Source: an uncultured Clostridium sp. (GTDB taxonomy: Bacteria > Bacillota > Clostridia > TANB77 > CAG-508). Taken from it: a stretch of DNA of 64,000 nt. The notes beneath the pieces are model-generated. The model made no database searches. It had not been told where the DNA came from and was given only the letters and a program-made list of their open reading frames with translations. The stretch lies in contig URWN01000004.1 in assembly GCA_900551615.1 (NCBI GenBank), positions 10,494 to 74,493 of the forward strand. Reading direction: 5' to 3'. Below, one piece after another: positions 40,195 through 42,978 of this stretch. How positions within the stretch are numbered: the stretch's first letter is position 1; each line of letters begins with the position of its first letter. Made by a program: the position numbers and the translations under genes.

Positions 40195-40803
40195 TCAACT
40201 GTTGTATTTATATGTTATAACTCTTTTTTCCGTTTTATTTACATCTGGTTGATTTGGATCATCATTTTGATAATAAACACCTAAATATTCTGTAATTGAT
40301 GTTGCTTTTTCTAATTGCTCATATAAAGATTTACACCCTGTTAAATCAACATGAAATTTTTTTTGAAAATCTGATTGATTTGTTATAAAATCATGATACA
40401 AAACTCCACGTATAAATTCAGCTTTTTGATCATTGTTGGCTAACACTACATTTGGATTATCTGTATTTTGATTTGTCTCTAAATCTAATGTTCTTTTTTC
40501 TACTAAGTCTCCATTTTTATTTTTAATTTTGTATATTGGACTTTGTAAATTTTCAAATACAATTTTGTAGTTTTCAAGATATGATCTAAATATAGATGGT
40601 ATAATGGTCTCTAAGCTAACGTTTCTTTCATATTTTCCTGATTCTGTTTCATAATACACATATTTTGTTTCTTTGTCTTTTTGACTTAATATTGTATCTG
40701 CCGTTTGCCTTACTTGTCCAAAATAGAAAATAGCAATAGAAATTGCTAATACAAATAACAATACGGCTCCTGCCATTTTTAATGCATCTGCTGCGTTTTC
40801 CAT
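40195..40803 (-). CDS. MENA-leader pilin-like protein 4 (202 aa)
   Basis: MENAADALKMAGAVLLFVLAISIAIFYF shares the N-terminal motif with the three paralogs upstream. RBS GAAGGGAG. Confidence 0.75.
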   Translation of the reverse strand: MENAADALKMAGAVLLFVLAISIAIFYFGQVRQTADTILSQKDKETKYVYYETESGKYERNVSLETIIPSIFRSYLENYKIVFENLQSPIYKIKNKNGDLVEKRTLDLETNQNTDNPNVVLANNDQKAEFIRGVLYHDFITNQSDFQKKFHVDLTGCKSLYEQLEKATSITEYLGVYYQNDDPNQPDVNKTEKRVITYKYNS

Positions 40804-40840
40804 CGCTATCTCCCTTCTAACAGTATATAACTACTATTAA

Positions 40841-41245
40841 TTATTTATGATCTGATATAGTTATTGTTTTTACTCTACCACTTGATTGATATTCTGAAAC
40901 TTCTATATCATAGTATTTTGTATTTTTTAAAGTTCCATATGCAGGTTTTGCGTCTCCTGCTTTTAATGTAACAATTCCAGTAAGTTCTATTTGTGTTTCG
41001 TCTGATGCATCTTCACTACTGTTGTTTGCAATAACCTCTTGAACTAATGCTCTTACTTCACTTCCTGTTTTTGTTCCTTCATATTTTGTAAATTGTTGGT
41101 TAAATGAAGATATTTCAGCTTTTGTCATACCACTACCACTAATAACCCCATTTGCTTGTTGGAATATATAAATTCCTAAAGATATCAATAATATTGATAA
41201 TAATATTGCACCTGCAATAATTAATGCTTTTGAAGCGTTTTCCAT
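40841..41245 (-). CDS. MENASKAL-leader pilin-like protein 3 (134 aa)
   Basis: MENASKALIIAGAILLSILLISLGIYIF, an FNQQFTKYEG motif and C-terminal GRVKTITI. RBS AAAGGAGGAAAA. Confidence 0.8.
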   Translation of the reverse strand: MENASKALIIAGAILLSILLISLGIYIFQQANGVISGSGMTKAEISSFNQQFTKYEGTKTGSEVRALVQEVIANNSSEDASDETQIELTGIVTLKAGDAKPAYGTLKNTKYYDIEVSEYQSSGRVKTITISDHK

Positions 41246-41325
41246 TTTTTTTCCTCCTTTGTTTTATATAAACATTATTTTCTATATTAGTACTAATTTA
41301 TACAATTAGTAAGATTAATAACTTT

Positions 41326-41757
41326 TTATTGTGTTATTTGTTCAAATAACATATATTTTACTCTATTAGTAGATTTATGATATTTTATATCTACACATTT
41401 AAATTTTATACCACTATAATAATTTATAAATTTTTCAATTCCACCATCATATAGTTTTTCCATTGGATATATGGTATCATTATCTAGCATTTTTATTTCT
41501 ATATTTATTGAGTTTGTATTATTATTTTGATAAATTCCTTTATTGTCTTTTTCTACTTCATTTGTTATATTATTATCAATTGCTCTATTGATAATTGTTG
41601 CTAAGTCTGTTCCATATACCTCTACATTTAGGTAATTTTCAAATTCCATATTTGCTTTTTTTGCTGTATTATATTGAGTTTTATAATTTAAATATAAATA
41701 AGAAATACCACATAATATAATTATTATAATTGTAAAAAATATAGCTAATTTTTTCAT
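41326..41757 (-). CDS. Membrane-anchored paralog of the pilin-like globular domain (143 aa), different N-terminus
   Basis: MKKLAIFFTIIIIILCGISYLYL anchor. MEFENYLNVEVYGTDLATIINRAIDNN aligns with AEFNKKFEKYAEGEINGTDIISLVNQVIDYN of the 42274-42978 protein. Confidence 0.7.
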   Translation of the reverse strand: MKKLAIFFTIIIIILCGISYLYLNYKTQYNTAKKANMEFENYLNVEVYGTDLATIINRAIDNNITNEVEKDNKGIYQNNNTNSINIEIKMLDNDTIYPMEKLYDGGIEKFINYYSGIKFKCVDIKYHKSTNRVKYMLFEQITQ

Positions 41758-41822
41758 GTTTTAAATCCTTTTTTATTATAGCATTACCATCTTTTTTTTT
41801 CAATATTATTTAGTAAAAAATA

Positions 41823-42263
41823 TTATTTTTTGTTAAACTTTATTTCTTTTATTCTCCCATCAGAATTATAGTTCATTACTTTGCAGCTATATGTTGGAAG
41901 TTCTGTTGTCATTGTATTTCTATCTGCCTGTATAAGTTGATTATATTGTTCTTGAGTATTTTCCTGAATCTGTTTATTTTCAAGGTAAACTATTATTTGA
42001 TTATTTTCATTTTCCTCATAATATTTATTGTTTTCTTTTGCATATCCAGCAACTGTAATTACATCATAAATTGTAAGCCCCTCTTTGTCTTCATATGCTG
42101 TAAACTTTGAGTTAAATTGAGATAATTGATTTTGTTTGTTTTGAGCATTAATTTGTGCAGATGTCGAACCAAAATCTGCAAATAAGTATACCATTAGGGA
42201 TAATACTAATACTCCTACTAGTATTCCCCCTGCCATAATTAATGCTTTTGATGCATTTTCCAT
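41823..42263 (-). CDS. MENASKAL-leader pilin-like protein 2 (146 aa)
   Basis: MENASKALIMAGGILVGVLVLSLMVYLF, an FNSKFTAYED motif and C-terminal GRIKEIKF. RBS AAGAGGTGA. Confidence 0.8.
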   Translation of the reverse strand: MENASKALIMAGGILVGVLVLSLMVYLFADFGSTSAQINAQNKQNQLSQFNSKFTAYEDKEGLTIYDVITVAGYAKENNKYYEENENNQIIVYLENKQIQENTQEQYNQLIQADRNTMTTELPTYSCKVMNYNSDGRIKEIKFNKK

Positions 42264-42273
42264 AGTTCACCTC

Positions 42274-42978
42274 TTATTTTTCAAATATAAATGATAGCCC
42301 TGTAATTTGCCCATCTTCATATTCTGGGTCTCCATTACTTTTAAATGTTGATGTTTTAAATTCTGAATATTCCCTGTATTGTTCTATTTCATTTTTTGTA
42401 ATATTAATATTTTTACCTGTTAAGTCTTGTATTGTTTTTTTAGTATGAGTAGAATCATCTTCTTTTTCTTTTTGAGTATATGCTATATTATCATAATTTG
42501 CAGATAATATACTCATAGTTTTTAATGTATATTGTTCTTCCAAATTTCTATATTTGCTGATAGCAGTATAAAAACTACTACTTTTATCTTTTATAACATA
42601 TGGTTTTGTATTAAATACTTTTAACTTTTTTGTACCTGTTGCTGTATTTGAAATTCCATATTTGTTTGCAAAATCTTCTCCTAATGTAACAGTTACTGTA
42701 ATTTTTTTATCATAATTTATAGAATTTGTTTTTGCATCTCCTTTGTTGTAGTCAATAACTTGATTTACCAAAGAAATTATATCTGTTCCATTAATTTCTC
42801 CTTCTGCATATTTTTCAAATTTTTTATTAAATTCTGCAATTTGTGAATTTTTTTCTGCATCTGAATTACCTTTTTGATAACTTCCTAATTGGTTAAACAT
42901 TAATATCAATGCCCCAATTACTAATAGTGCAGTTAAAATTCCACCTGCCATTAGCAAGGCTTTTGATGCGTTTTCCAT
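42274..42978 (-). CDS. MENASKAL-leader pilin-like protein 1 (234 aa)
   Basis: MENASKALLMAGGILTALLVIGALILMF, an FNKKFEKYAEG motif and C-terminal GQITGLSFIF. RBS AAAGGAGAA. Confidence 0.8.
   Translation of the reverse strand: MENASKALLMAGGILTALLVIGALILMFNQLGSYQKGNSDAEKNSQIAEFNKKFEKYAEGEINGTDIISLVNQVIDYNKGDAKTNSINYDKKITVTVTLGEDFANKYGISNTATGTKKLKVFNTKPYVIKDKSSSFYTAISKYRNLEEQYTLKTMSILSANYDNIAYTQKEKEDDSTHTKKTIQDLTGKNINITKNEIEQYREYSEFKTSTFKSNGDPEYEDGQITGLSFIFEK

Follow-up and report, generated by a model that had tools for sequence, protein, structure and literature searches.

Tad/Flp systems, among them Cpa of Caulobacter, Tad of Aggregatibacter and the tad locus of Bulleidia extructa (PMC12786226), are alike in gene order to an operon that we analysed in a 64,000-nucleotide stretch of DNA from an uncultured Clostridium sp. 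(assembly GCA_900551615.1, contig URWN01000004.1, positions 10,494 to 74,493; hereafter the window). The operon comprises 12 closely packed genes on the minus strand (37958-49826). Four of them encode proteins, here termed MENA proteins, that probably are paralogous pilin-like subunits of a very divergent Tad-type machine of the type IV filament superfamily, and the best explanation of the operon is that it encodes this machine as a whole. Shared with Tad systems is the succession of a SAF/CpaB-like gene, weakly ParA-like genes, a gene for a CpaF-like ATPase, a gene for a polytopic protein and genes for small N-terminally hydrophobic proteins, with a large one last. As in Tad systems there is a single ATPase, and its closest solved relatives are CpaF proteins; unlike CpaF, the operon ATPase is transmembrane-anchored and carries a long N-terminal domain. 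Flp pilins are about 60 residues long and headless (PMC3244431, PMC12786226), whereas MENA proteins span 134-234 residues, bear a globular head and have neither the G/XXXXEY motif nor Asp or Glu at position +5. The operon also lacks tadV, which is usually present in canonical Gram-positive tad operons (PMC3244431, PMC12786226), and in place of TadB and TadC it has one 692-residue protein without a T2SSF signature. The system therefore appears most like Tad pili in gene order and ATPase, and appears to depart from them in the features of a Flp-type pilin, a T2SSF platform and a linked TadV.

The signal motif seems closest to that of archaeal class III pilins, the substrates of PibD, FlaK and EppA, which are known from Haloferax (PilA1-6, with Asp-Ala↓Val or Arg-Ala↓Val) and also from Sulfolobus and Methanococcus (PMC4371748). 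The archaeal-type prepilin rule calls for Gly, Ala or Ser at -1 and a charged residue at -2, and needs no acidic residue at +5 (PMC4371748). MENA proteins resemble these pilins in their very short leader, in Ala at -1, a charged -2 and a hydrophobic +1 with no requirement for an acidic +5, and in forming several paralogues with a nearly identical hydrophobic domain. They differ from them in their bacterial host, their CpaF-type ATPase, a leader that is not positive and a -2 charge that three of eight compared lineages have lost. We identified no archaeal-type peptidase for the MENA system, and the Pfam family Pilin_N is matched by an orthologue of the SAF protein, not by MENA proteins. The original prediction had read the leader as fitting an archaeal ancestry of Tad systems; beyond the motif, nothing that we found appears specific to Archaea, and the only solved relatives of the ATPase (E ≤ 0.01) are bacterial.

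Two further comparisons concern less canonical systems. Tad-like loci described as 'no Flp_2' in C. kluyveri, C. cellulolyticum, C. bolteae and D. hafniense (Imam et al. 2011, PMC3244431) share with the operon a Clostridial host, genes only distantly related to canonical tad genes, the lack of a prepilin with the bacterial motif, and lineage-specific genes of unknown function. Compared by description, these loci are reported with recognisable tadC and tadV (PMC3244431), whereas the operon here has neither. The thin pilus of the IncI2 plasmid TP114 is a type IVb pilus of a Gram-negative plasmid and aids conjugation (PMC9045228). As in that case, homologous operons of the present system lie on large plasmids near transfer genes, although the window copy is chromosomal. 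By analogy, the variable subunit heads could set contact specificity; a role of the present family in plasmid transfer is speculation. TP114-type pili have canonical PilB/PilC-type components and their own peptidase.

The MENA proteins and their N-terminal module

Open reading frames starting ME[NDSQ]AxxA[LIVM] occur exactly four times in the window, all on the minus strand and with starts at 42978, 42263, 41245 and 40803, as originally predicted. They encode MENASKAL proteins of 234 residues (42274-42978, with an enlarged head), 146 residues (41823-42263) and 134 residues (40841-41245, the best candidate for a major subunit), and a MENAADAL protein of 202 residues (40195-40803), in which the same N-terminal module, with Asp at -2, is joined to an unrelated head. 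Common to the four is a start MENA(S/A)(K/D)AL followed by an uncharged helix of about 24 residues, and pairwise 13-16 of the first 25 residues are identical. Each gene is preceded by its own Shine-Dalgarno sequence. The first 16 codons vary synonymously (AAC/AAT, GCA/GCT/GCC, TTA/TTG), which points to selection on the protein and speaks against recent gene conversion or a nucleotide-level element as the source of the N-terminal identity.

Three of these proteins had been predicted to share an internal block with a fifth, and a comparison of head profiles (residues 33 to the end, 68-101 orthologues per gene, hhalign) bears this out. The heads of 42274-42978, 41823-42263 and 40841-41245 are homologous to one another and to that of a 143-residue paralogue (41326-41757, minus strand), with E values of 2e-6 to 1.7e-17. 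Profiles of the heads of 40195-40803, 39614-40135 and 37958-39550 gave no match to this shared head. The 143-residue paralogue replaces the MENA module with a generic and poorly conserved anchor of MKK and a hydrophobic stretch; such a Lys-Lys plus hydrophobic anchor, taken as N-in/C-out, suggests that the shared head is extracytoplasmic.

Orthologues were compared in 82 related loci retrieved with the peptide patterns MENASKAL and IAGAILL[SA]IL; a scan of the GTDB species representatives had yielded at least 549 confirmed stretches, with 80 loci kept. In each MENA class, orthologues share 53-71% of the first 30 residues and 26-31% of the remainder. The earlier description of tandem paralogues that keep their N-terminal helix while their heads diverge is upheld. 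The most conserved N-terminus is that of 40841-41245 (71%), an invariance that is partly selected for by the pattern-based retrieval; the other MENA paralogues in the 82 loci were not selected by peptide pattern. Orthologues of 41326-41757 reverse the picture, with 32% identity in the N-terminus and 43% in the head.

Motif statistics were compiled from 294 distinct MENA-type proteins of the related gut-clade loci. Position 7, which would be -1 of a processed protein, is Ala in 294/294, and position 8 (+1) is Leu in 286/294. A charged residue stands at position 6 (-2) in 284/294 (Lys in 220, Asp in 33, Glu in 26 and Arg in 5), and the uncharged run after position 7 has a median length of 24 residues. 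The original prediction described a leader ending in Lys-Ala; Lys at -2 is not constant, however, and gives way to Asp or Glu in the orthologue class of 40195-40803 (consensus MENAvDALKMA); Haloferax pilins are cleaved at Asp-Ala↓Val (PMC4371748). The MENA N-terminus thus appears to fit the archaeal-type processing rule and to fail the bacterial one.

Searches of Pfam and NCBIfam returned no match for the pilin-like proteins or their plasmid homologues, and the Pfam families Class_IIIsignal, Pilin_N and Flp_Fap in particular do not match MENA proteins. An AlphaFold2 model of 40841-41245, made with 50 homologues (predicted local distance difference test score, pLDDT, 85.6), consists of a helix (residues 2-35), a low-confidence linker (31-40, pLDDT 55) and a small alpha/beta head built from helix 42-53, strand 57-60, helix 61-75 and strands 87-90, 111-119 and 125-132. 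This predicted 'lollipop' shape is compatible with a pilin and does not prove one.

The family is large. The 134-residue protein has 7,136 homologous clusters at 90% identity, and those listed are all unnamed or 'hypothetical' and have no Pfam domain. An index-free profile search found 6,059 clusters at 50% identity (E ≤ 1e-3), of which the best 150 all align from residue 1. Together with the presence of the exact 134-residue window protein on 361 contigs, this family size marks an abundant and unstudied candidate for a surface structure. Our search for publications on the operon, the protein family, DUF5704 or leaderless pilins found none.

The operon in gut Clostridia and on plasmids

The operon is made up of genes for a SAF/CpaB-like protein, two weakly ParA/MinD-like proteins, a CpaF-like ATPase, a 692-residue polytopic protein, five small proteins and two N-terminally hydrophobic proteins. 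Across the related loci the conserved order is SAF (360 residues), 230 residues, 286 residues, ATPase (668 residues), 692 residues, the MENA/K143-type genes, 173 residues and about 530 residues. Analysis with tblastn and of open reading frames found the seven non-MENA genes all present in 68 of the 82 loci and colinear in 68/68, and most loci without the full set are short or lie at a contig end. The link to a Tad-like ATPase, which the original prediction had proposed to look for elsewhere, therefore extends beyond this genome. Between the platform and 173-residue genes lie three to seven MENA/K143-type genes, five in 55 of the 68 loci, and each of the four or five MENA paralogue classes is kept across dozens of species. 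Among the matches listed, the kept loci all come from uncultured Clostridia or 'Clostridium sp.' metagenome-assembled genomes (CAG:389 and CAG:575 among them). Gut-type samples of human cohorts, rabbit, mouse, chicken or ruminants are mentioned in many of the record titles.

The best-characterized component is the 668-residue CpaF/TadA-like secretion ATPase (45097-47103, minus strand), detected by tblastn in 75/82 loci. CpaF proteins are its only relatives in the PDB at E ≤ 0.01 (7.2e-8), and its best NCBIfam match is the TadA family TIGR03819 (6.1e-9). The match to Pfam T2SSE (2.5e-5) scores 23.6 bits against a cut-off of 24.9; since all scores fall under the curated family cut-offs, the protein is a distant family member. 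Its median identity across loci is 81%; the small genes reach 39-45%. Known secretion ATPases of this family are normally soluble. Here an N-terminal transmembrane anchor precedes an N-terminal domain of about 250 residues, and the anchor recurs in 32 of 33 full-length orthologues and in a homologue from a Thermobacillus plasmid. The anchor helix is followed by KKKK, and the window protein also has a Lys/Arg-rich C-terminal tail. The operon contains no PilT-like second ATPase.

Directly 3' of the ATPase gene in all related loci that contain it stands the gene for the polytopic membrane protein of 692 residues (42994-45072, minus strand; 78/82 loci), the presumed platform in the position of TadB/TadC. 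It is predicted to be all-helical; its hydrophobic segments number about nine, and two regions assigned to the cytoplasm are very strongly conserved. Its AlphaFold2 model, built from 33 sequences that are 84-100% identical, has a pLDDT of 45 and is unusable.

At the 5' end of the operon the bitopic SAF protein (360 residues; 48744-49826, minus strand; 72/82 loci) occupies the CpaB/RcpC position and has a basic N-terminus and one transmembrane helix. Pfam SAF matches 15 of 31 orthologues (best E 2.1e-5) and ChapFlgA matches 5 of 31; sequence and profile searches of the PDB returned nothing significant for the 360-residue protein. The N-terminus is both basic and hydrophobic (MATNPMQRKARNSFLLGVLVALILGG), and one orthologue matches Pilin_N, the archaeal type IV pilin N-terminal family, at E 3.8e-4. 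Next come two predicted cytoplasmic proteins, each found in 72/82 loci: one of 230 residues (48029-48721, minus strand), possibly a degenerate MinD/ParA-like protein in the TadZ position, and one of 286 residues (47166-48026, minus strand), weakly ParA/Get3/CooC-like and in the TadZ/CpaE position. They have in common a Walker-B-like segment YDxV(L/F)(I/V)DxD, and the Thermobacillus homologue of the 286-residue protein is annotated ParA. At the 3' end are two proteins with an N-terminal hydrophobic helix and no Pfam match. The first, of 173 residues (MSDTLVTIVAIGLAAVLMFVFPLM; 39614-40135, minus strand; 78/82 loci), is a candidate accessory or minor subunit; the second, of 530 residues (MKIQSLAVMFIILILPISLVL; 37958-39550, minus strand; 77/82 loci), is a candidate large accessory subunit in a TadG-like position.

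A tblastn search of PLSDB with the ATPase found full-length homologues (37-58% identity over 80-91% of the length). The large plasmids that encode them belong to Thermobacillus composti, Sporosarcina psychrophila, Paenibacillus lautus, two species of Lysinibacillus, Clostridium botulinum and Butyrivibrio proteoclasticus. The operon core is present on each of the seven, consisting of a SAF-position protein (annotated SAF on five), proteins of about 230 and 280 residues, the ATPase, a membrane protein of about 690 residues and one pilin-like gene, with homologues of the 173- and 530-residue proteins 3' of the last. A hidden Markov model of the 134-residue family finds all seven pilin-like genes (E 8e-16 to 2e-4); models of the 173- and 530-residue families find homologues in 7/7 operons (E 2.7e-15 to 2.3e-34) and on 5/7 plasmids (E 1.4e-20 to 7.8e-42), respectively. 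Because the single plasmid MENA-type gene matches 40841-41245 best, we take the latter as ancestral and probably the major subunit, and the gut clade as having expanded this subunit into four or five paralogues. A homologue search with the Thermobacillus pilin-like protein returned only nine proteins, the named ones from Thermobacillus and Paenibacillus. The homologues in Paenibacillus lautus (locus L087, 12925-13392) and Lysinibacillus irui (L088, 12945-13418) are labelled 'ABC transporter permease' in RefSeq, which looks like a mis-annotation caused by the hydrophobic N-terminus.

The plasmid homologues have a leader of eight residues, then Leu or Ile, and the residue equivalent to -1 is Ala or Gly in 7/7. 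The -2 residue is charged in Thermobacillus (MSTNASKA↓L), C. botulinum (MGENARKA↓L), Butyrivibrio (MDDNATKG↓L) and L. fusiformis (ESPVVKA↓I after an annotated TTG start, rendered Leu in the raw translation and Met in the string tested). The charge is lost in 3/7, being replaced by Thr in Sporosarcina (MKESTSTA↓L) and L. irui (MSETTATA↓L) and by Leu in Paenibacillus (MEENPNLA↓L), so the family at large does not always have a charge at -2. We also considered a 'leaderless pilin', with Glu2 acting as Glu5 and Met1 as the mature end. The eight-residue leaders of the plasmid homologues rule this out, and it is contradicted as well by the Thermobacillus MSTNASKAL, which has no acidic residue, and by Lys-Gly↓Leu in Butyrivibrio.

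Conjugation genes lie near the operon on 4/7 plasmids. A type IV coupling protein and a relaxase are encoded directly 5' of it in Thermobacillus (NC_019898.1) and Paenibacillus; a coupling protein, a PrgI-family protein and a cell-wall hydrolase lie nearby in Butyrivibrio, and a relaxase in L. fusiformis. Elsewhere the Thermobacillus plasmid encodes TcpE, a conjugal transfer protein and a glucosaminidase. Genes for giant SLH or DUF5704 surface proteins stand 3' of the operon on four plasmids, and a GGDEF gene follows it on two, with an HD-domain gene too on one. These neighbours suggest an adhesion or mating module, possibly under the control of cyclic di-GMP. Pili have been reported for B. 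proteoclasticus B316, but without identification of their structural proteins (PMC2914790). The homologous operon with the MDDNATKG↓L protein lies on the megaplasmid pCY360 of this strain, and B316 may offer a cultured system for the family.

A proposed pilin-type machine and its alternatives

The sequences show how the parts are related and clustered, how conservation is distributed and how regular the N-terminal motif is; from this we infer how the MENA proteins might work as pilin-like subunits. The short hydrophilic N-terminus and the uncharged helix would direct N-in/C-out insertion into the membrane. The helix would be the module common to all subunits, recognised by the machine and packed on polymerisation into the core of a fibre, and the exposed heads would be free to diverge. 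The machine itself would consist of the transmembrane-anchored CpaF-like ATPase, its 692-residue polytopic partner, the SAF/CpaB-like protein and the two ParA-like proteins. In this scheme 40841-41245 would probably be the major subunit and the other MENA proteins alternative or minor ones; 41326-41757 would be a membrane-retained paralogue, and 39614-40135 and 37958-39550 would be conserved accessory subunits. We judge it about an even call whether the Ala7-Leu8 bond is cleaved by a prepilin peptidase whose gene lies elsewhere in the genome. The most likely role would be adhesion or aggregation, and the plasmid relatives may serve in contact formation during conjugation. The conservation pattern, the operon context, the CpaF-like ATPase and the SAF gene all appear to speak for a pilin machine, and the occurrence of the N-terminal module on an unrelated head in 40195-40803 likewise seems to favour pilin-like subunits. 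So do the fit of the N-terminal motif to the archaeal-type rule, its retention in distant plasmid homologues and the model of 40841-41245 as a long helix with a small head.

Several observations weigh against this reading. Among the 294 MENA-type proteins, +5 is Gly, Ala or Phe and never Asp or Glu, and the PilFind core motif ([GAS]-x4-[DE] followed by 14 uncharged residues; PMC3244431) occurs in 0/294. The net side-chain charge of residues 1-7 is 0 in 225, -1 in 9 and -2 in 60 and is never positive; the leader is neutral or acidic, unlike class III signals, which have a positively charged n-region. The originally predicted likeness to archaeal class III leaders accordingly holds for the motif, including the dispensable acidic +5, and breaks down on charge. 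A prepilin peptidase gene is absent from the roughly 90 operons examined, including the seven plasmid operon regions (for the plasmids, by annotation), and was not found in the 64-kb window by transmembrane-helix counts and Pfam searches of the neighbours; Pfam Peptidase_A24 (TadV/PilD) matches none of the operon proteins, and the annotation of the whole Thermobacillus plasmid shows no such gene. Prepilin peptidases are present on the Butyrivibrio chromosome (PMC2914790). A Foldseek search of the PDB with the model of 40841-41245 gave no pilin or other match (best E 2.3), and the weak linker between helix and head differs from classical pilins, in which a continuous alpha1 helix packs on the sheet. 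The 692-residue protein gave no T2SSF match at E ≤ 1 in 44 homologues (31 + 13), a search that took in the window protein, 30 gut-clade orthologues and the seven plasmid homologues; sequence and profile searches, the latter with two profiles, found no match in the PDB, and the protein lacks the internal repeat expected of PilC-like proteins. It is therefore by position and topology that we take it as the presumed platform. Profiles of the 230-residue protein reach only sub-significant MinD matches in the PDB (E 0.05), and those of the 286-residue protein give the ParA-family structure 3ea0 at E 0.038 and Get3 at about 0.1-0.3, none significant. Finally, the close relatives all come from uncultured metagenome-assembled genomes.

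Much of this evidence can also be read as pointing to bitopic membrane proteins or exported substrates, with the N-terminus a targeting signal and the operon a device for secretion or display that builds no long pilus. Specialised signal-peptide motifs are known from Gram-positive bacteria, and short pseudopili from type II secretion systems. The low-confidence linker and the head that matches no pilin fold, the leader that is not basic and has no acidic +5, the operon without a peptidase and a platform that is not recognisably GspF-like would all suit such a device, for which the giant SLH/DUF5704 proteins encoded 3' of the plasmid operons could be cargo. We nevertheless consider it rather unlikely: an invariant helix on hypervariable or unrelated heads, beside CpaF-, CpaB- and ParA-like neighbours, has the look of a pilin set. 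Between proteins with 30% identity, ordinary signal peptides do not stay the same at every residue, and cleaved Sec signals tend to have hydrophobic runs shorter than the 24 residues seen here. We give similarly limited credence to the possibility that the system is a separate, unclassified branch of the superfamily confined to Bacillota, with a neutral or acidic leader of 7-8 residues and an archaeal-style (charged)-Ala↓Leu site, processing by a non-dedicated peptidase or none, a partner that is not of the GspF/PilC type, and use as a conjugation contact device on plasmids. If that were true, Gram-positive conjugation would have in the plasmid machine its first associated contact device of the pilus type.

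The plasmid operons raise the related question of whether the system is a conjugation accessory, a mating pilus or aggregation device, whose chromosomal copy is a domesticated or remnant mobile-element module. Full-length ATPase homologues in the same operon on large plasmids, with conjugation genes near on four of the seven, are what one would expect, but the operons in the window and the 82 related loci sit among housekeeping genes with no relaxase, coupling protein or integrase, and their synteny across many species indicates vertical inheritance. PLSDB moreover types all seven plasmids as non-mobilizable, and a plasmid-borne operon need not be specific to conjugation, since the GGDEF and HD-domain genes point equally to biofilm or adhesion; we regard this explanation as distinctly improbable for the chromosomal copy. 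Far less credible still is that ordinary membrane-anchored proteins were recently duplicated in tandem or underwent gene conversion, and that their similar N-termini merely reflect this and serve no particular function. Tandem genes with so many identical N-terminal residues would invite it, but beyond the synonymous codon differences it has to face paralogue classes maintained across dozens of species with heads only about 30% identical, a motif retained in plasmid homologues from other Bacillota families, and an unrelated head on the same N-terminus in one paralogue.

The protein family, with about 6,000-7,000 clusters in public data, has so far had no entry in Pfam or NCBIfam. Its hypervariable heads would be candidates for adhesion to the host, to diet particles or between cells, and for recognition by the immune system or by phages. 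With no recognisable platform and no linked peptidase, both deemed core components, the system tests how far type IV filament architecture can diverge, and it would provide a concrete case of Tad systems keeping archaeal-type signal features. These questions are testable because homologous operons exist on plasmids of cultured bacteria (T. composti KWC4, P. lautus, Lysinibacillus and B316).

Genomic surroundings of the operon

The window has a G+C content of about 27%, and the operon lies in a Clostridia-like chromosomal neighbourhood of housekeeping and sporulation genes (MurC, SpoIVB, HAD hydrolase, HPF, RecO and Era). RecO, HPF and the HAD hydrolase are encoded upstream. SpoIVB lies 3' of the operon in 58/82 loci, and the window and the related locus L001 have MurC farther along. 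We rejected a link to sporulation, as nothing more than the synteny with SpoIVB was found for it; the promoter-like site upstream of the operon is of the housekeeping type. Mobile-element genes (relaxase, coupling protein, integrase) were found around the operon neither in the window nor in the 82 related loci.

A sigma-70-like promoter candidate 5' of the first gene in the operon, TTGATT-17-TAAAAT (49869-49897, minus strand), is weak evidence, as promoter-like sites occur at chance level in this AT-rich region (102 found, 100.9 expected). At the other end, a hairpin with a 20-bp stem followed by a T-run (37885-37932, minus strand) is the likely operon terminator; terminator-like sites number 8 against 1.8 expected. 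Two near-consensus sigma-70-like sites, each with 11/12 matches and an extended -10 TG, lie directly 5' of 41326-41757 (41775-41803, minus strand) and of 39614-40135 (40170-40198, minus strand), and are possible internal promoters in a region where such sites appear at chance frequency.

The HAD/Cof-type hydrolase gene 5' of the operon (49985-50925, minus strand) appears frameshifted. Its open reading frame ends at 50137, and the Pfam Hydrolase_3 match covers only profile positions 1-209 of 255; the conserved C-terminal part (GDNMNDKLMIQNAGIGIAMGQ...) runs on in another frame to about 49985. The gene could be a pseudogene, or the frameshift could reflect an assembly error.

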